From: an uncultured Chroococcidiopsis sp.
GTDB taxonomy: Bacteria > Cyanobacteriota > Cyanobacteriia > Cyanobacteriales > Chroococcidiopsidaceae
Reading direction: 5' to 3'
Assembly (NCBI GenBank): GCA_964248365.1
Contig: CAXTYC010000063.1
Coordinates: 1 to 13,230, forward strand
Length of the DNA: 13,230 nt
Shown: piece by piece, positions 1,124 to 9,093 of the stretch
Layout: the number at the start of each line of letters is the position of its first letter
How positions within the stretch are numbered: position 1 is the stretch's first letter
Translations under genes and position numbers: made by a program
The notes under the pieces: generated by a model
Database searches by the model: none
The model's input: the letters and a program-made list of their open reading frames with translations, nothing else
What the model was told of the DNA's origin: nothing

Positions 1124-1990
1124 TTAAGAAGAAACTTTCAAACTGTAACGCTGGCACAAACTTTTAAATTTTTCGATCATGAGCAATCGCACATTTTCAG
1201 GCGCTACGATTACACAATCAGGTGCATATTGCATTACTTCCCTGATAAACCAAAATGTAATAGATACCCGCCTGACAACTCGCCGCACCCGCTGTGTATC
1301 TGGTAGCCATTCATTTAGCTTGTCTTCTGGTTTAGCTTGATAAGCAAAGGCTAAACCAGCAAACAGATGCATTTCTACATCTATCTCTGCCAAACTAGAA
1401 CGCCACTGGCCAGCAACAGGTAAAATGGCAGCATCTTGTATCCTGTCTAAACGCAAACTCCAATTATGCCTTAATTGTTCGACATCCAAGTTGCCATCTG
1501 TCTCTTCACACCAGCAATCAAGATATTGACGGTTTTCGTGTGGTGTAACCTTGGCATGGCGAACAGTAAAATCCCATACTCGATGTGCTGCATCTTGATA
1601 GCTGAGTTGAAAGGGTTGCTGGCGTAAGATGTAACGGTCTATTTCCAAACGCCAGTGGCGGGATAAGTTTCCTAAGAAACTTTCGATTTCACCTCGCAGA
1701 GGTATTAGTAGTTCGCTACGTTCAAGTAGTAATCGTGCGATTGTTTGTGCCTGCTCGTTTTGCCCAATGTCGCTAAACAAATGCATTGCACGGTAAAGCG
1801 CACGGATACGCGATTCTGACCAGTCATGATTTTTCCCAATAATTAAATGATGCTGGGCGATTGCTTCTATGAGCTTGGAGATATTCGGGCGATCGCCCCA
1901 CATCAGATTAAACTCCTGGGCTAGGTTTTCTAATTCAGCTTTGTCACGCTCGTGTAGAGACAAAGTTATCGATTGACCTTTTCGACTCAT
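1124..1990 (-). CDS. CRISPR-associated WYL-domain transcriptional regulator (N-terminal RHH-like, WYL, C-terminal WCX-like)
   Basis: 288 aa. The N-terminus SITLSL..DKAELENLA..NISKLIEAIA is ribbon-helix-helix-like. The WYL core reads F.LSYQDA...YLDCWCEE...SLRLDRI and the C-terminus reads WFIREVMQY...IVAPENVR. It is divergent from cas3, as is typical of cyanobacterial I-D loci. Confidence 0.88.
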   Translation of the reverse strand: MSRKGQSITLSLHERDKAELENLAQEFNLMWGDRPNISKLIEAIAQHHLIIGKNHDWSESRIRALYRAMHLFSDIGQNEQAQTIARLLLERSELLIPLRGEIESFLGNLSRHWRLEIDRYILRQQPFQLSYQDAAHRVWDFTVRHAKVTPHENRQYLDCWCEETDGNLDVEQLRHNWSLRLDRIQDAAILPVAGQWRSSLAEIDVEMHLFAGLAFAYQAKPEDKLNEWLPDTQRVRRVVRRVSITFWFIREVMQYAPDCVIVAPENVRLLMIEKFKSLCQRYSLKVSS

Positions 1991-2086
1991 TTTGTACGGA
2001 CACTTTATACAGTTATTTTATTGCTAATCTTTATTTTGCGTGCCAATATAGATTTTAACAAGATTTTACGGACAGTATTTAAGTAT
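1991..2086. promoter_or_regulatory. Divergent WYL/cas3 promoter region with two TACGGACA direct repeats
   Basis: AT-rich 96-bp intergenic region. TACGGACA occurs at 1995-2002 and 2067-2074, each close to one of the two start codons. Confidence 0.55.
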
Positions 2087-4267
2087 ATGTCCAACAATTA
2101 CACAATAACTCTCAAACCTGTCTATTCAGAAACAGTGCCAACACCAGAGGGCTTGAAAATGCCTAATGGGTGGTCATTGTCTTGGCATCAAGTTGAAACT
2201 TTAAAAGCGCTGCGAGATCCAAATATTGATGTAGTATTCAACGCTGGCATGACTGGCGATGGTAAAAGCTTGGCAGCTTATTTACAAGTGCTTCTAGGTG
2301 AATTATCCGCTATTGCGCTTTACCCGACAAACGAACTAGCCCGTGACCAAGAAATACAGATTAAAGGATATATTGAAGAATTCCAACCTAAAGAGAAACC
2401 TCGTGTAGCGCGACTTAGTGGCGCTGATTTAGAAATTTATGCAGAAAATGAAGGATTGAAAAAAGGTGCAGCGATCGCAACTCTCACTAACCAAAGAGAA
2501 GCATTGTTAACTAACCCTGATATTTTCCATTACTTACATTACGGTGCTTATATTATTCATGGTGATAGTCCAGATAAATTATGGGGAAGAATAGATAAAG
2601 ACTTTAACTTATTTATTTTCGATGAATTTCATGTTTTTGCGGCTCCCCAAATTGCCAGCATTATTAATACAATGCTGTTAATACGCTGCACAAACCGTCA
2701 TAAGAAGTTCTTATTTCTTTCAGCAACGCCAGATAAACATTTAATTAGCCGATTGCAAGAAGCTGGGTTTCGGTGTCAAGAAATCAATCCAATTGAGCAA
2801 AAAAAATATCAATTTCCTGAGACATTAGAAAAAGAACAGGAACTACAAGCGCAGAAATGGAGGCAAGTAGCGCGAGCAATTTCGCTGAATTTTATTCCTT
2901 TGTCACCTGATTTTAAAGCTTCTGAAACTTGGTTAAGAGAAAATAGTAATTTTATTTTGGCTCAGTTTAAGCAGTATCCAGGTAGTAAAGGTGCAATTAT
3001 TCTTAACTCAATTGCAGCAGTCAAACGCCTGACTCCATTTTTTCAAGAAATTTTACAGCCATATGGCTTGACCGTAGGAGAAAATACAGGACTATCTGGA
3101 AAAGGTGAAAAAGAACGCAGTCTTGCTGCTGATTTAGTCCTTGGCACGAGTACCATTGATGTTGGAGTTGACTTTAAAATTAATTTTCTGATTTTTGAAT
3201 CGTCAGATGCAGGGAATTTTATCCAAAGATTAGGACGTTTAGGAAGGCATGGTGGATATGAAAAGAATGGTCAAAAAATCAAGTTTGAGAACTTTACTGC
3301 TTTTGCACTGGTTCCTAACTTTTTAGTAGAGCGTTTATTTCAGCTAGAGCTTCCACCGTTAAAAGTTAATAGTATTTGCGATCGCCCCACTCTCCAACAC
3401 ATCATTAGAGAGCAATATCGCCAAATCAATGACTTTCATGGCTACTATCGCCGTTGGGGTGCTGTCCAATCATTTTGGCTGTATTACAAGTTAGGCGATC
3501 GCACAATTAAACAACAGTATGCCCAAAGCCGTGAGAAGTTTCAAGAAGCCTGTGAGCAAGTATTTGAAACAACTTTGAAGTCTGCGGCTGGACGTATTCA
3601 AGGATGGGCAAATGAGTGGAGACAGATATCTGGTAAAAAGGAGGGTAACCCAATTGCTGAGGATGCTGCTAGTTTTCGAGGCTTTAGCCCCTTGCAATGT
3701 GGTTTGTACGATTTAATGGCACAAAATGAGGCAGAGAGGTTTAAAACCTACGATCTACCAGGAATTTTAAGCAATTTAGAAATTGGAATGTGGACAGAAG
3801 CAGCGTTTATGCGAACTTTGAAAGAAACCGCCCAACGCACCGGACAACCAATTGCCAAAGGTAGATTTGCTCACTGTCTCGCATTTATGAAGTTGCGTTC
3901 CTACCGTGAGGAGCGGCTGAACTGGAAGTTTACCTACTCTAGCGACTTGCAGCCAATAGCTGATGCTTGGAAAGTTCAGGTTTTAACTGGTGTAGGAATT
4001 TGGCAACCAGACAATCAATGGATTGGTGCAATTAACAAAGAGTTGAAAAAGGAAGGTTTAGTTAGCTACCTGATACGCCGTCCAGTCGCAGAAGTGCGGA
4101 TGCGGCTACGGCTACCGATGCACTTTCAGATTTACCCAATTAGCGATCGGTATAGCTTTCATGATGCTACTGCACCGTATGCGATCGCTTTCGGTCACTC
4201 TGCGCTGCTACTGGATACCCTTGCCTATACGTTCAAAAGCAAAGGAGATGAGATATGGGTTGCTTGA
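2087..4267 (+). CDS. cas3: Type I-D CRISPR-associated helicase Cas3' (no HD domain)
   Basis: SF2 motifs: HQ (Q motif), TGDGKS, FDEFH, LSAT, TIDVGVD, QRLGRLGRH. No N-terminal HD domain. The start is placed at ATG 2087 (MSNNYTITL) because the tracked 1973 start overlaps the WYL gene. Confidence 0.93.
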   Translation: MSNNYTITLKPVYSETVPTPEGLKMPNGWSLSWHQVETLKALRDPNIDVVFNAGMTGDGKSLAAYLQVLLGELSAIALYPTNELARDQEIQIKGYIEEFQPKEKPRVARLSGADLEIYAENEGLKKGAAIATLTNQREALLTNPDIFHYLHYGAYIIHGDSPDKLWGRIDKDFNLFIFDEFHVFAAPQIASIINTMLLIRCTNRHKKFLFLSATPDKHLISRLQEAGFRCQEINPIEQKKYQFPETLEKEQELQAQKWRQVARAISLNFIPLSPDFKASETWLRENSNFILAQFKQYPGSKGAIILNSIAAVKRLTPFFQEILQPYGLTVGENTGLSGKGEKERSLAADLVLGTSTIDVGVDFKINFLIFESSDAGNFIQRLGRLGRHGGYEKNGQKIKFENFTAFALVPNFLVERLFQLELPPLKVNSICDRPTLQHIIREQYRQINDFHGYYRRWGAVQSFWLYYKLGDRTIKQQYAQSREKFQEACEQVFETTLKSAAGRIQGWANEWRQISGKKEGNPIAEDAASFRGFSPLQCGLYDLMAQNEAERFKTYDLPGILSNLEIGMWTEAAFMRTLKETAQRTGQPIAKGRFAHCLAFMKLRSYREERLNWKFTYSSDLQPIADAWKVQVLTGVGIWQPDNQWIGAINKELKKEGLVSYLIRRPVAEVRMRLRLPMHFQIYPISDRYSFHDATAPYAIAFGHSALLLDTLAYTFKSKGDEIWVA

Positions 4268-4268
4268 G

Positions 4269-4380
4269 GTTTCGATCCCTAATAGGGATTTTGGTTACTG
4301 ATTTACAGTAAGAGGGCGTAAGCCTTCAAGTACAGCGAAGGAAATTTCAATCCCTGATAGGGGTTCAAGTCTGCCTGATG
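4269..4380 (-). CRISPR. Degenerate mini-array (repeat-spacer-repeat) encoding a putative crRNA-like regulatory RNA
   Basis: Minus strand: R1 4380-4344 CATCAGGCAGACTTGAACCCCTATCAGGGATTGAAAT; 38-nt spacer 4343-4306 TTCCTTCGCTGTACTTGAAGGCTTACGCCCTCTTACTG; R2 4305-4269 TAAATCAGTAACCAAAATCCCTATTAGGGATCGAAAC. Both repeats keep the CCCT-N3-AGGG hairpin and an ATTGAAAC-like 3' end of cyanobacterial I-D repeats. The period is 75 nt. Confidence 0.85.
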
Positions 4381-4401
4381 TTTTATTGCCCTCCACTCTC
4401 A

Positions 4402-4407
4402 ATCATA
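4402..4407 (-). promoter_or_regulatory. Candidate -10 box (TATGAT) for the mini-array transcript
   Basis: TATGAT on the minus strand ~21 nt upstream of R1. No clear -35 box. Confidence 0.35.
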
Positions 4408-4455
4408 TAGGAGAAATTCACAAGATTTTTATGTAGTCTTTAATAACTGAATTTA

Positions 4456-4483
4456 TTGTCATAAAAATTTCGTATGCTATTCT
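4456..4483 (+). promoter_or_regulatory. Sigma70-type promoter for the leader/small-ORF transcript
   Basis: TTGTCA (4456-4461), 16 nt, then TATTCT (4478-4483) with an extended -10 TG at 4475-4476. Predicted TSS ~4490. Confidence 0.6.
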
Positions 4484-4492
4484 TTACTTGTT

Positions 4493-4521
4493 GGCATCAG
4501 CCTGCAAGGACAGAGAAGGAA
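4493..4521. promoter_or_regulatory. Target site of the mini-array spacer
   Basis: GGCATCAGCCTGCAAGGACAGAGAAGGAA versus 4315-4343 GGCGTAAGCCTTCAAGTACAGCGAAGGAA: 24/29 identical. Confidence 0.8.
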
Positions 4522-4541
4522 ATTCGTTGTACCGATGCTTG

Positions 4542-4611
4542 CATCCGTCCGACGCTACGCTTCTTACTGTAGTTGAACTGATACTCTCATCCGTCCAACG
4601 CAACGCTTCTT
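4542..4611 (+). repeat. Two 24-nt direct repeats separated by 22 nt
   Basis: CATCCGTCCGACGCTACGCTTCTT (4542-4565) and CATCCGTCCAACGCAACGCTTCTT (4588-4611), 22/24 identical. Confidence 0.85.
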
Positions 4612-4724
4612 TATGAAGCAAACATAAGTTCAAAATTTACAAGGAGGTTCCAAGATAATAAAAGATCTTTTGATTCCAATTTCTTAAGACACGATTCCTA
4701 AAACTTAAGTGGAGGTTCTAACTG

Positions 4725-4916
4725 ATGAACAATTATGTTCAGTTGGAACTCTTTGACCTGCGATCTTACACCTCAGAACAATCGTCTGTAACTGAGGAAG
4801 TAACTGAATTGGTCGAAGAGATTCAGCAATTAAGCAACTATAAGCAACTTGAACTTGATCTCTTTCGACAGCAGTTTTATAAAACTCCTTCCGAGTTATT
4901 TATATTAGCTGCATAA
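4725..4916 (+). CDS. 63-aa acidic peptide with duplicated NY.QLEL motif; putative beta-clamp-binding toxin
   Basis: SD GGAGG at 4711-4715, 9 nt before the ATG. Internal repeat NYVQLELFDL / NYKQLELDLF and C-terminal LAA. A hairpin follows the stop codon. The function is inferred. Confidence 0.7.
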   Translation: MNNYVQLELFDLRSYTSEQSSVTEEVTELVEEIQQLSNYKQLELDLFRQQFYKTPSELFILAA

Positions 4917-4924
4917 CTTCAAAA

Positions 4925-4957
4925 GGGGGCTAAGAACTCATTAATTCAAAAGCCCCC
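4925..4957. terminator. GC-rich stem-loop after the small ORF
   Basis: GGGGGCT (4925-4931) pairs with AGCCCCC (4951-4957). A T-run follows the stem only on the minus strand (AAAA at 4921-4924 on plus). Confidence 0.55.
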
Positions 4958-4989
4958 CTCATCACAATTAAAAATATTGGGAGTAAATC

Positions 4990-5233
4990 ATGGACGAACA
5001 AAAAATTTTGGAAAGAATCACTGTCAATCCTCAAATTTTTGGCGGTAAACCTATTATTCGAGGTCGTCGGCTAGCGGTTGAACATATTTTAGGGATGCTT
5101 GCAGCAGGAGATACTATCGAAACCTTGCTAGAAGCTTATCCCTGGTTAGAACGGGAAGATGTTGCAAGCCTGTTTAGTTTATGCGCGGAGGTTAGTTGGT
5201 CATGAGCGAATTGAACCATTATTGATAGAGTAA
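4990..5233 (+). pseudogene. DUF433-family antitoxin, frameshifted
   Basis: RITVNPQIFGGKPIIRGRRLAVEHILGMLAAGDTIETLLEAYPWLEREDV is a DUF433 signature. One extra base near 5163-5164 shifts the frame. The shifted frame continues QACLVYARRLVGHERIEPLLIE* to TAA at 5231-5233. Confidence 0.8.
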
Positions 5234-5238
5234 GCAAT

Positions 5239-5599
5239 GTGAAAATACTGCTAGATACTTGTGTCTGGTTTGGAGTGCGTACCAATTTACTTGCTGCTGG
5301 CTATGACGTAGTTTGGAGTGGAGATTGGTCAGAAGATTCAGGCGATGAGGAGATTTTAGCAACTGCTTACCGTGAAGGTCGAATTTTAGTAACGCGAAGA
5401 TATTGGCTTTGGAGAGTTAGCGATTGTACGGGGAAATCCTCATTGTGGTATTTTGCGGCTAGTTAATCTCAGTACTAAAGAGCAATCAATTGTTTGTGTG
5501 CGGGTGCTTCAGCTGTACGGTGATGAATTAGCGTCGGGTGCGATTGTAACTGCGGAATTAAGCAGAGTGAGAATTAGACCACCAGAGAATGATGGCTAG
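5239..5599 (+). pseudogene. DUF5615 PIN-like toxin, frameshifted
   Basis: MKILLDTCV...DEEILATAYREGRILVT, then the expected T.DKDFG motif is disrupted at ~5395-5405. Another frame continues FGELAIVRGNPHCGILRLVNL...GAIVTAELSRVRIRPPENDG* to TAG at 5597-5599. Confidence 0.8.
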
Positions 5600-5622
5600 A
5601 ACTCAACCAATAAAAAACTCAT

Positions 5623-5766
5623 ACCAATGGTGCGAGAAATTGACGGGCTTTAGTTTCTCTAGATTTTTCATTACTAACGCGCAAAACGGCAACCAATAGT
5701 TGCAGAAATTGACTGTAATCAATTATACAGGTTGAAAAACTGCCGCCATTGGTGGCAGAAATTGCT
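5623..5766. repeat. Three degenerate 22-bp direct repeats upstream of cas10d
   Basis: ACCAATGGTGCGAGAAATTGAC (5623-5644), ACCAATAGTTGCAGAAATTGAC (5692-5713), GCCATTGGTGGCAGAAATTGCT (5745-5766). Confidence 0.75.
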
Positions 5767-5802
5767 CAGACTTATAAGTTGGTCATTCTTTGGAGGTAAA
5801 AA

Positions 5803-8800
5803 ATGGCTAATGGTGAAGATTGGTTATCAGGTGATTTTGGATTTGATGGTGATTCTTCACACCGCACTATTGAAACCAAAGGCGAATTATTAACACTCAA
5901 GCTATTACGTGAAGCTATTCAGGCTCAAAATCCAGATGACAAAGTAATGGCGGATTTTGCTGAGTATGTTTTACCAAATCTGTTGCAAATAGCTATTGGT
6001 GTCACTGCCAAAGGTGGTAAGTTTTTTGATGAAATCGATCAACAGCGAGAAGCCGAAGGTAAAACTAAAGTTAGGCGAGATAATGCTGCTGACCAATCAC
6101 TGAATACTCACTTACTGAATGGCTTATTTCCAGCTAATTTAATTGAGAGACGTTTAGAAAAACTCGATACTACCGTGCGGCGAGTGGTGAAAGAACGAGA
6201 ACGTCGATTAGTAATTGCTGGGTTTATTTTACATGATTTTGAAAAATTTCCTGATATACCAGAAAATTGCCGCAATTTATCGTTAGCAGAACATCGTCAA
6301 ATTATTGATGAAAAAGTTCGCCAGTTAGGACTTGATAGCTTTATCAATCCAGATAATCCAGAGGCTTATCGAGAGTATTTAGATGATTTGTTGTGCATGG
6401 TTTATAATGCACAACGACGCTGGGATACTAACTGGAATTTTTCTGAGTTTGGCTTGAATCCTGTTCTCAAAGACCGCACTCTTCGTAGTCTGTCTGATTT
6501 AACCTGTTTAGCTGATTCTCTCGCTTCAATTGTTAAACATCCCCAAGATGCAGAACATCCCAGACTACAAGAAATTATTCATAATCTTAGTGATGGACAA
6601 TTGAAATTTACCTATCACAGCATTGCTGAGAACCGAGGTGTTTTAACCAATGTTGTGAATAATGCTGTAATTCAAGCTTATACTAGCCTCAATACTGATG
6701 AGCATACATACTATGAACCTTTACTATATCTGCCAATAGGTGTAATTTACCTGGCTGCGCGTAATGCTCCTCCTATCTCATCAGAAGATTTACCAGACCT
6801 TGTAGTTAACAATATTAAATCACTTTGTGCTGACCAACTACGCCTAAGACAGACAGGATTTGGTCGAGATGGTAAAGGCATGAAATATGCCGAATATTAC
6901 AACTTATTTTTTGACTCTTTAGGCTTAATGCAAGTGGCTTTAGATGCGACGTTACGCATTTTAAGTTCTAGTAAACCATCTGTTGCCAAAAGTCGCAGTG
7001 AAAATTTAGCCAAGTTCCAACAACAAGGAGTTTTACCTGCTGAATTTGATTTTAATTTTGCTGATGATATCCGCATTGACCAAATAGCAGAATTTGGTGA
7101 TTTAGTAAGTCGCAAGATTTGGGATGAAACAGTTAATCGTATTGAAGCAGTTCGCAAAAAAGATAAAAAAATCCCAAAAATACCTGCTCTTGATTTAACT
7201 CATAAGGTAGTTGAATTCTGGAATTTAACAAAATATATCCCTCAAATTCACCACATTCAGCGCATTAATGAATGCTTGAAAGAAAACAAGTTAAAAGGCA
7301 ATACTGGCGGAGTCCCTTACGAATGGTATTATCTGGCAGCTAAGTATCTTGAAGAACATCCAGGCATTGAAGATGTACGGGAAACTTGCTTGCAAGTTAT
7401 TGACTACTTGACAAGATTAATTTCTCCAATACTTGCTCAATATAAATTACCTGATGGTTGGGACGATTTAAGGCAATGGGTATCACGAGTTTTCATGTTA
7501 CCAACCGCAAATCAACAGCCATCACCTAAAACTCAAACTGAGAATTTTCTCAAGGAGTTAAATAATTACAATGCTGCTAAAAAAGCTGGACGGGGACGAC
7601 AATTAATCTGTTCAATTTCTCATTCTGCTTACACAGTAACTGAGCAGATGGAATCAGCAGTTTTGTTTACACCGCAAGTTTATACCAACAAACAAATGCT
7701 GGGTGGTTCTAATGCCAAGCGCAATATTTCCAGTATTGCAAGTGTAGAAATGATGCTCAGACAAATTTTAATGAATCAAACTCAAGCAGTCGGTAAACGA
7801 TTTGAAGATGGTAAATATCGTTATCTCTACTTTTATCCCACTTATTACTTTACTCCAGAAACTAACAAGTTTTTACAAAAAGCTTACAGTGGAATTGCTC
7901 AGACTCGGTTTGATACGAGTGTCCGCAATCATTTTATCACTAAGGATTTACAAGCTCATTTAGCAAAGAAAGACTATCAAAGCGTCGATAGTTTTTTGAT
8001 TGATGAAAACTTAGAAAACGAGAAAGACCGTACATTTAAGCTTTCTTATCCTGAAGACCAACCTTTAACATTCTACTTCATGGCGCTACCACCAGGACGA
8101 GAAAGCACTGATACGGAATCTTGGGTAATGCCTAGTTGGCTGGCGTTTGCTTTTCCAATGATTTTAGATGTTAAAACTGTAGTTTCCGAGTCCCCAATTC
8201 CACCTTTTAATGATGGTGCTGAATTTGAAGAAAGCGTCTTTCTTGATAGTGCGCCTCATGCTTTCCGTGCTTTGGTAAGACGCGATCGCTTCCGGCTTGA
8301 CTACATCCTTAAAGGTTGGAATGAAAACGGTACTCAATACCCAGCACCCTTAAATGTCTTAACTGCTGCTTATGCGATTCATTTAGATGTGAATGCGCGA
8401 CAAGGTAAGTCTGGTTATGATGCCAACTGGGGAAGATTTACTGAACTGGCAAAAGATTTTGAAACTAGTCCGCTATACGTCTTTTCTTATCTCAATCGTT
8501 GGGTTCGTAACCAGGGAGTAGAAACGGCACGAATCGAGAAAATTCGGCTTTATACGTATCATTTTTATCCTTGTTTTGACCCTTATGTGAAATATGACAC
8601 TGCTATGGAGCAATTAATTGTGGAAGAAAAATCAAGTCTAAATCACCCTAAGAAGTTAACAGATTTGTACCGAAAATTTTATAGAGCTAATAAGCGTTAT
8701 AATCCCAAATCTAATGCTGTTTTGAAACCAATTGATATTGCGGCTGAAACTATACTCAAAGCTGACTTAAGTGTCTTTCATGGTGAAACATTAGTTGTGG

Positions 8801-9093
8801 TTGTTGCAGCAGAAGTTTTTAAGCTAATGGATCGCGTTCATTCTTCTACTGCTGAAGGACGCTGGGTAATAAGTAAAAGGGAGGAAGAACGCCTAGCTGT
8901 TCTAGATTTTGCACAGTATTTTGTAGTGGAGGTATTTGAGAAGTCTTTTGCAGGCGATCGCGCTCGTTTAGCAGGTCGTCAACTAAACTTAATTCGAGAT
9001 ACCTGCGAGTTTCTTTATCGTTTAGAAGACGACAAAGAAAACTCAGCTAGAAATGAACAATCTACCGAATCTACTGATGATGACAATCAGTAA
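5803..9093 (+). CDS. cas10d: Type I-D large subunit Cas10d/Csc3 with N-terminal HD nuclease domain
   Basis: 1096 aa. DQSLNTHLLNG...LHDFEK...LADSLAS HD motifs. SD GGAGG at 5792-5796. Lies directly upstream of csc2/csc1. Confidence 0.93.
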   Translation: MANGEDWLSGDFGFDGDSSHRTIETKGELLTLKLLREAIQAQNPDDKVMADFAEYVLPNLLQIAIGVTAKGGKFFDEIDQQREAEGKTKVRRDNAADQSLNTHLLNGLFPANLIERRLEKLDTTVRRVVKERERRLVIAGFILHDFEKFPDIPENCRNLSLAEHRQIIDEKVRQLGLDSFINPDNPEAYREYLDDLLCMVYNAQRRWDTNWNFSEFGLNPVLKDRTLRSLSDLTCLADSLASIVKHPQDAEHPRLQEIIHNLSDGQLKFTYHSIAENRGVLTNVVNNAVIQAYTSLNTDEHTYYEPLLYLPIGVIYLAARNAPPISSEDLPDLVVNNIKSLCADQLRLRQTGFGRDGKGMKYAEYYNLFFDSLGLMQVALDATLRILSSSKPSVAKSRSENLAKFQQQGVLPAEFDFNFADDIRIDQIAEFGDLVSRKIWDETVNRIEAVRKKDKKIPKIPALDLTHKVVEFWNLTKYIPQIHHIQRINECLKENKLKGNTGGVPYEWYYLAAKYLEEHPGIEDVRETCLQVIDYLTRLISPILAQYKLPDGWDDLRQWVSRVFMLPTANQQPSPKTQTENFLKELNNYNAAKKAGRGRQLICSISHSAYTVTEQMESAVLFTPQVYTNKQMLGGSNAKRNISSIASVEMMLRQILMNQTQAVGKRFEDGKYRYLYFYPTYYFTPETNKFLQKAYSGIAQTRFDTSVRNHFITKDLQAHLAKKDYQSVDSFLIDENLENEKDRTFKLSYPEDQPLTFYFMALPPGRESTDTESWVMPSWLAFAFPMILDVKTVVSESPIPPFNDGAEFEESVFLDSAPHAFRALVRRDRFRLDYILKGWNENGTQYPAPLNVLTAAYAIHLDVNARQGKSGYDANWGRFTELAKDFETSPLYVFSYLNRWVRNQGVETARIEKIRLYTYHFYPCFDPYVKYDTAMEQLIVEEKSSLNHPKKLTDLYRKFYRANKRYNPKSNAVLKPIDIAAETILKADLSVFHGETLVVVVAAEVFKLMDRVHSSTAEGRWVISKREEERLAVLDFAQYFVVEVFEKSFAGDRARLAGRQLNLIRDTCEFLYRLEDDKENSARNEQSTESTDDDNQ
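8620..9093 (+). CDS. cas11d: Probable Cas11d small subunit translated from an internal start in cas10d
   Basis: In-frame GTG at 8620 preceded by GGAG (8607-8610) and an AT-rich spacer, giving 157 aa. The context GGAGCAATTAATTGTG resembles the cas7d RBS GGAGATTAATTATG. ATG 8605 is an alternative start. Internal Cas11d translation is established for I-D systems. Confidence 0.65.
   Translation: MEEKSSLNHPKKLTDLYRKFYRANKRYNPKSNAVLKPIDIAAETILKADLSVFHGETLVVVVAAEVFKLMDRVHSSTAEGRWVISKREEERLAVLDFAQYFVVEVFEKSFAGDRARLAGRQLNLIRDTCEFLYRLEDDKENSARNEQSTESTDDDNQ

Follow-up and report, generated by a model that had tools for sequence, protein, structure and literature searches.

We examined, between cas3' and cas10d of a cyanobacterial type I-D cas locus, a module that we interpret as a CRISPR-repressed toxin-antitoxin unit, similar to CreA/CreP but with a lock acting at the level of RNA; we give this reading a probability of about 45%. 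In its ancestral form, one guide RNA would have two targets. At the first, a seed site with a GTC PAM next to the -35 region, Cascade would block transcription in the manner of a classical CreA. At the second, which is long, has no PAM and spans about +4 to +32 of the message, it would bind the RNA that escaped and keep it untranslated or unstable. Loss or inhibition of Cascade would release a 63-aa protein that fills the partner pocket of the beta sliding clamp through one or two motifs and stalls replication, and whose Ala-Ala tail would imply a short lifetime and a reversible arrest. The module was studied in a stretch of 13,230 nt from an uncultured Chroococcidiopsis (hereafter the window), where, with a decayed DNA site and a real -35 box, the RNA site would be the remaining lock. 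We consider that the module is real and conserved, on the basis of genome comparisons, from which its conservation, the co-variation of guide and target, the mismatches at every sixth base, the absence of a PAM, the two sites and the protein motifs can all be read.

Profile searches identified in the window a WYL regulator, cas3' (1973..4267, plus strand; TIGR03158, Pfam DEAD and Cas3-like_C), cas10d (5803..9093, plus strand; TIGR03174), csc2, csc1, cas6, cas4 and cas1, and the cas reading frames are open. Cas10d keeps K326, G433 and Y437 (Synechocystis numbering, alignment to chain I of 7SBA), the residues described as the readers of the GTN PAM. The host genome (5.58 Mb, 99.97% complete) has a single CRISPR array, on contig C47, whose 43 spacers gave two 17-nt matches in the genome and were not used for PAM inference. 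We found no match to type III RAMP genes in this genome, which rules out a type III complex as the RNA binder there; since these genes are missing both in the host and in nine of 27 module-bearing genomes, such a complex is not needed. The module is followed by a toxin-antitoxin-like DUF433-DUF5615 cargo pair (4990..5599, plus strand; Pfam and three-frame reading), each gene of which is frameshifted. Directly upstream of cas10d lie three imperfect 29-nt repeats (5614-5764), two of which form hairpins of the CCAAT/ATTGG type, one being terminator-like on the minus strand. The open frame at positions 2-778 has weak N-terminal HTH matches and possibly encodes a plasmid-type replication or regulatory protein.

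Beginning 2 nt past the stop codon of cas3', the mini-array is encoded on the minus strand, as judged by its GAAAC-type end and by Rfam. The degenerate repeat that would become the 3' end of the guide RNA (4269..4306) has kept its hairpin and matches the C47 array repeat at 18 of 21 positions, all repeat scores being relative to the first 21 nt of the latter. Its portion 4269-4297 was matched on the minus strand by Rfam CRISPR-DR5 with an E-value of 0.046 and 29.5 bits, under the gathering score of 40. The single spacer (4307..4343, minus strand) has about 37 nt, the first 29 of which pair with the PAM-less site. The other degenerate repeat (4344..~4365, minus strand; 16/21) would yield the 8-nt 5' handle AUUGAAAU (4351-4344), at a cleavage position that we assume from the known behaviour of Cas6. 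An earlier, sequence-only reading of this DNA had described a minus-strand, single-spacer mini-array with degenerate repeats, and the similarity of both repeats to the host array bears this out; such a mini-array in a cas operon is a feature of CreTA and CrePA. Its RNA would be cut by Cas6 and loaded on the I-D Cascade. A candidate -10 box (TATGAT, 4402..4407, minus strand) might belong to its promoter, and similar TAnnnT boxes were seen by eye in eight loci. Public metatranscriptomes (three small-share runs, two of them resembling one data set) provided only short contigs; one, from a close relative, spans 4136-4413, and none extends over the leader or the ORF.

Protein and pattern searches detected the 63-aa ORF in 34 distinct cyanobacterial genomes, always within one gene of the end of cas3', and 33 of these genomes have repeat-like sequences ahead of it. 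Two unrelated weak matches (L005, L146), 12 of the 23 non-cyanobacterial pattern matches and six duplicate loci were removed before counting. The sole match without an array (L036) has an ORF cut to 38 aa, a truncation that would fit, indirectly, a gene that is toxic when unrepressed. The self-contained unit of mini-array, target and small ORF that had been proposed from the window is therefore conserved. The ORF is uncommon: we found it in nine of 401 genomes of the class, and 18 real matches in 351 genomes of the Nostoc family. The ORF was not found outside cas loci in viral contigs, in plasmids or in a single-protein scan of genome contigs. The mini-array is far more common than this cargo, in agreement with what Shmakov et al. 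describe: in a cas3'-based sample (93 of the 401 genomes), 88 loci extend far enough downstream, and a repeat-like sequence follows cas3' at 30-145 nt in 53 of them. Four mini-arrays (L003, L131, L144, L145) have three repeat-like units, and thus possibly a second spacer with its own target. Downstream cargo varies among the loci, and no conserved partner ORF was found in them that could be a protein adaptor of the SocAB type. Three related spacer lineages carry a long sense-strand site, with or instead of a GTN site: clade A, which consists of the loci with a 63-aa-type ORF, and clades B and C.

The plus-strand promoter at 4456..4483 (-35 TTGTCA, 16-nt spacing, extended -10 TG-C-TATTCT, start inferred near 4490) was retrieved by our promoter scan at the place where the sequence-only reading had put it. 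The scan barely exceeded shuffled sequences (4 sites against 2.5), and the support for the promoter is therefore the extended -10 box, conserved at about the same distance in most relatives. That reading had found the long PAM-less site and overlooked another target, just upstream of the -35 box: a decayed DNA-type site (4436..4454, plus strand) with a GTC PAM and five of ten seed matches. Of the 22 clade-A loci, 17 have a GTC site that matches the seed at 8-10 of 10 positions and precedes the long site by 42-60 nt; the homologous site of four Nostoc loci has three of ten. A PAM-adjacent seed target at promoter DNA, typical of CreTA and CrePA, has thus decayed in the window and is present in 17 of 22 related loci. 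More broadly, 56 of the 68 mini-arrays scanned (four spurious or secondary repeat rows having been removed) have a separate GTN site with at least nine of ten seed matches near the adjacent promoter, the shuffle maxima being 6-8; this is the unbiased figure, as Group D (6/6 GTN) was picked after its PAMs were seen. The other four perfect-seed sites in the host genome all lack a GTN PAM. The window and the four Nostoc loci share the -35 box, a 46-nt leader duplication and a second Shine-Dalgarno sequence, features by which the window appears as a derived form of the module. In these loci, as in two loci of clade C, the DNA site is gone and the long site is kept.

The long site (4493..4521, plus strand; flank AAT) matches the spacer at 24 of 29 positions, with mismatches at guide positions 8, 13, 18, 24 and 26, and the guide is complementary to the sense strand. 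We confirmed this match, which had been noticed in the sequence-only reading: it is the best in the 5.58-Mb genome besides the spacer itself (the next best, 20/29, occurs at eight sites), and none of 2000 mononucleotide shuffles of 4366-5802 gave more than 20/29. The use then inferred for it, silencing of promoter DNA in the manner of CreA or CreR, found no support in that form. The flank AAT is the end of the repeat, i.e., the self signal; none of the 34 distinct related spacer-target pairs has a GTN flank at the long site, where ten different flanks occur overall; and the seed is mismatched in 37% of cases across the family. By comparison, the characterised targets of CreA, CreR and crlRNA are described as having a canonical PAM and PAM-proximal pairing.

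Cascade might nonetheless bind the long site as double-stranded DNA despite the AAT flank and block RNA polymerase just past the start, as a classical CreA on DNA. The site is well placed for such a roadblock, at about +4 to +32, and the best argument for it is the full pairing at guide positions 1-7 in the window, owing to which weak dsDNA binding at a non-canonical PAM may occur there. The lineage without the GTC site also pairs at position 1, and long complementarity might offset a poor PAM. Besides the flanks and the family-wide seed mismatches, a roadblock is at odds with the clade-B sites, which are far from the promoter, and with the Synechocystis I-D Cascade, reported not to bind dsDNA with the related AAC PAM (PMC9123187). 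We consider it rather unlikely.

Mismatches at the long site are unevenly distributed. In the 34 pairs, 74% of guide positions 6, 12, 18 and 24 are mismatched, against 7-9% in the middle and distal parts. In the 25 clade-A pairs, mismatches occur at 71 of 100 sixth bases and at 88 of 625 other bases, and the pattern is repeated in two other lineages (73% vs 18% and 100% vs 22%); these pairs, taken from related genomes, do not amount to independent trials. Gaps at every sixth base have been described in other type I systems as the mark of pairing inside the Cas7 backbone, which they also indicate here, and we hold it highly probable that the pairing occurs inside Cascade. Outside these positions, G:U-compatible mismatches outnumber the opposite transitions by 46 to 20 (among kin, hence not independent). 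Co-variation of spacer and target in homologues had been named beforehand as a check on the idea, and it was found. Among the 25 clade-A pairs, cognate spacers and targets match at 21.5 of 25 positions and non-cognate ones at 17.8, and 21 of the 25 columns outside the sixth bases show more than one matched letter, as expected from the co-evolution seen in CreTA and CrePA. This set leaves out L140, L144 and L145, for which the parser picked another spacer; inspection by eye shows both sites in L144 and L145. The spacer and long site of the window carry matched lineage-specific letters.

The Synechocystis I-D Cascade is reported to bind ssRNA with any flank at 11 nM and dsDNA with a GTT PAM at 35 nM (PMC9123187). 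Since an I-D Cascade can thus bind ssRNA without a PAM, the long site is, from its sequence features, most likely an RNA target. We regard it as probable that the target is RNA and not dsDNA, and as fairly probable that binding there represses. The roughly threefold higher affinity for ssRNA than for dsDNA (PMC9123187) could also serve a decoy, in which leaked transcript soaks up Cascade and frees the promoter site, giving an all-or-none switch with the clamp-binding protein as its output. The two sites do occur together in 17 of 22 clade-A loci, and our switch-folding test, in which control windows shifted as much, gave no clear repression. Where the DNA site is lost and the long site kept, as in the window, the four Nostoc loci and the two clade-C loci, a decoy would have nothing to protect, and we find this explanation distinctly improbable.

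An RNA-level lock would act on a structured leader (4490..4598, plus strand, by folding). In relatives, the leader folds into a long irregular hairpin whose 5' arm is formed by the long site; in the window, this fold lies within 0.5 kcal/mol of the minimum. When 17 loci were folded as single sequences, most had a closing helix that includes compensatory pairs (z from -3.4 to +0.9), the 3' ends of the leaders having been chosen by a motif, which favours such a helix. RNAalifold retained only three pairs in 12 leaders because these align poorly. Forcing the long site open gave a mean of +1.9 kcal/mol (above 0.5 in 13 of 16 loci, +0.2 in the window), and control windows shifted similarly. In the lineage of the window, the leader was remodelled by a 46-nt tandem duplication (4526..4617, plus strand; 78%; repeat scan and alignment), and an extra Shine-Dalgarno-like GGAGG (4643..4647, plus strand), with no start codon behind it, looks from the alignment like a relic of a shorter ancestral leader. 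The RBS (4711-4715), which had been called strong, is predicted to be locked, together with the start codon, in a hairpin with codons 5-10 (4709..4757, plus strand; -16.9 kcal/mol). Its z is -3.8 for a 51-nt segment against shuffles, and a z of at most -2 was obtained in seven of 16 loci.

Type I toxin-antitoxin mRNAs have a long structured leader and a buried RBS, and their RNA antitoxin is complementary to the mRNA 5' end. The module shares these three traits and differs in its antitoxin, whose flanking repeats and gaps at every sixth base suggest a Cas7 scaffold and not a naked RNA duplex, and in its protein, which is acidic and not a membrane peptide.

The closing hairpin noted earlier (4925..4957, plus strand; -14.3 kcal/mol) is present; it lacks a U-tract and went uncalled in the terminator scan. 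We found no promoter-like plus-strand site between 5250 and cas10d, so that read-through from the module into cas10d seems possible from the sequence. Both observations suit a structured RNA as the active part of the module, either an RNA toxin neutralised by Cascade or, as in CreR, an attenuator of read-through into the cargo or cas10d. CreR also has a PAM-flanked target at a promoter that drives cas effector genes, and the PAM site of the window has decayed. The homologue of the long site and a stem-closed RNA also occur without this ORF, in L016, which keeps the array, both sites and the leader, and in the 16 loci of clade B. In the latter the site lies about 90 nt past a stop codon, far from the promoter site, in a stem-closed element of about 140 nt that follows a hairpin; this RNA is possibly an RNA toxin or an attenuator. 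L016 and the other genes found at the site in clades B and C indicate that the RNA site does not exist solely to serve the 63-aa ORF. In clade A, however, the motifs of the protein are conserved at 32-89% identity among 23 sequences, the ORF has moved in L140 under a different, PAM-type guide without the leader, and the leader has neither an Rfam family nor the SD-start-rare-codon unit of CreT, the ORF being kept as a protein of 60-69 aa. An active RNA is therefore improbable as the explanation of the module.

Some details of these relatives deserve a record. The clade-B element (L038, L047, L050, L052, L062-L064, L073-L076, L084-L086, L091, L093) is closed by a 10-11-bp helix behind an ORF of 62-68 aa, three of which were tested against Pfam and had no match. 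In clade C (L039, L051), the long site is in a stem-closed leader ahead of an ORF of 79-83 aa, about 400-650 nt past cas3'; no family was found for this ORF, and no PAM site in these two loci. L140 carries the clamp-motif ORF as a fusion, preceded by the beginning of another small gene and placed under a different guide with a GTC-PAM seed target; we read this arrangement as a cargo swap.

The 63-aa ORF (4725..4916, plus strand), found where the sequence-only reading had placed it, is our candidate for a sliding-clamp-binding toxin. Searches of Pfam, NCBIfam and PHROG gave no match, and hence no KilA-like domain as in CreP; one ESM Atlas match at 0.75 was counted as a non-result. What the 23 aligned sequences have kept in common is limited to two Q-L-x-L motifs, a tyrosine and the Ala-Ala end. 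The first motif is the pentapeptide QLELF (residues 6-10, 4740..4754), in which Q6, L7 and F10 are invariant and L9 nearly so. The second is the hexapeptide QLELDL (residues 41-46, 4845..4862), with Q41 and L44 invariant and L42, E43 and L46 nearly so. They fit the clamp-binding patterns Q-aliphatic-x-L-F and Q-aliphatic-x-L-x-L, and QLELF is reported to bind two clamps in vitro (bioRxiv 10.64898/2026.05.27.728225, which also gives motif definitions). QL.LF is present in 24 of the 3388 long ORFs of the host genome. The C-terminal LAA (4905..4913; A63 invariant, A62 in at least 90%) may be a ClpXP degron, since an Ala-Ala tail resembles such degrons; 19 of the 3388 long ORFs end in AA, and the host tmRNA tag ends in AVLA.

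A complex model of the protein with the host DnaN scored 0.63 (runs 0.08, 0.63 and 0.66), against 0.00 for the best control. It passed a threshold that 116 of 157 solved complexes and two of 215 mismatched pairs also reach, with a contact agreement of at least 72% and a partner pLDDT of at least 43. In the model, residues 5-10 contact G177-L180, P250, Y252 and M372-I376 of DnaN; these include the DGHRL and C-terminal MPVQI segments, which we take to be the known partner pocket. QLELF is thus predicted to dock in the pocket, and QLELDL stays undocked; because QLELF is a textbook motif, the pass may reflect likeness to solved clamp-peptide complexes. The small toxin suggested by the sequence-only reading gains plausibility from the two motifs, which make the ORF look toxin-like, and we lean towards a clamp-binding toxin, keeping in mind that clamp binding is not the same as toxicity. 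Clamp-motif-like sequences (QLSLF, QLSLL or QLELF) also occur in the first 30 residues of at least 35 of 80 Cas10d proteins, with a crude choice of starts (e.g., L012, L051, L083, L093, L105, L121), and are absent from the N-terminus of the window's Cas10d; the I-D Cascade may in such cases be tethered to the sliding clamp.

The decayed promoter site, the duplicated leader, the buried RBS and the frameshifted DUF433-DUF5615 pair might together mean that the host genome carries the decaying relic of a once active unit. This is very improbable, given that the ORF, both motifs and the tail are intact, that the spacer and long site share lineage-specific letters, that the four Nostoc loci have the same derived layout and that the cas genes of the window are open.

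Mini-arrays of type I-D systems facing cargo genes between cas3 and cas10d have already been predicted (Shmakov et al., bioRxiv 10.1101/2023.03.03.530964). They share with our module the position, the orientation opposite to cas3, the variable toxin-antitoxin cargo and a predicted target upstream of the cargo, and the module very probably belongs to the clade of their Figure 6A; Figure 6 or supplementary file 6 may list these very loci. The targets described there are PAM-flanked seed matches at promoters, and the accessible text mentions neither a second, PAM-less site nor RNA targeting nor the small ORF. The module is more unusual in mechanism than the sequence-only reading held, and less so in architecture.

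In CrePA (type I-F, bioRxiv 10.1101/2024.01.05.574328), a degenerate mini-array RNA likewise represses a small protein toxin encoded next to it in the cas locus, and an anti-anti-CRISPR role was proposed for it. Its CreA, however, acts on PAM-flanked promoter DNA and depends on positions 1, 5 and 10, and its CreP is KilA-like and linked to FtsZ; type I-D, cyanobacteria and the clamp go unmentioned in the accessible parts of that work. CreTA (haloarchaeal I-B; P. aeruginosa I-F, bioRxiv 10.64898/2026.06.02.729485) and CreR (bioRxiv 10.1101/2023.03.10.532045) share a crRNA-like guide and partial pairing with free 6th and 12th positions, whereas their toxins are tRNA-draining RNAs, or there is none, and their targets are described as PAM-proximal matches on promoter DNA. 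The CreR paper devotes one sentence to creA-like elements of type I-D. The module works like CrePA, but we do not file it as a member of CreTA/CrePA because the PAM-plus-seed promoter target fails in the host genome.

As for the toxin, SocB (Caulobacter, type VI toxin-antitoxin) and RipA (S. pneumoniae) act at the hydrophobic pocket of DnaN, and SocB is turned over by ClpXP (PMC12795458, PMC5422525). They have protein antitoxins and no known link to CRISPR, and the 63-aa protein matches no family. In the mostly open-access literature that we searched (I-D or cyanobacterial mini-array toxins, CRISPR-linked clamp toxins, PAM-independent mRNA regulation), we found no PAM-less transcript site, no two-site design on DNA and RNA, and no such 63-aa protein.

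The binding of ssRNA by the I-D Cascade was described in vitro only, and the choice between RNA and DNA targets was left open (PMC9123187). In the module, a single guide naturally has a target of each kind, and some lineages have lost one of them, which makes this choice directly testable in Nostoc or Synechocystis. On the reading that we tentatively favour, I-D systems would use PAM-independent RNA binding in nature, in a two-level lock that has become RNA-only in some lineages, and the cargo would be a two-motif, clamp-blocking, protease-tagged mini-toxin. If so, the long site would be the first RNA that a type I Cascade targets in nature, as far as the literature we searched shows, CRISPR-repressed toxin-antitoxin systems would extend to post-transcriptional control, and a compact inhibitor of the sliding clamp would constitute a new class of toxin. 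The module also warns that searches restricted to PAM and seed overlook regulatory targets. The cells would then depend on their CRISPR system through the targeting of RNA, and not through the usual targeting of DNA.
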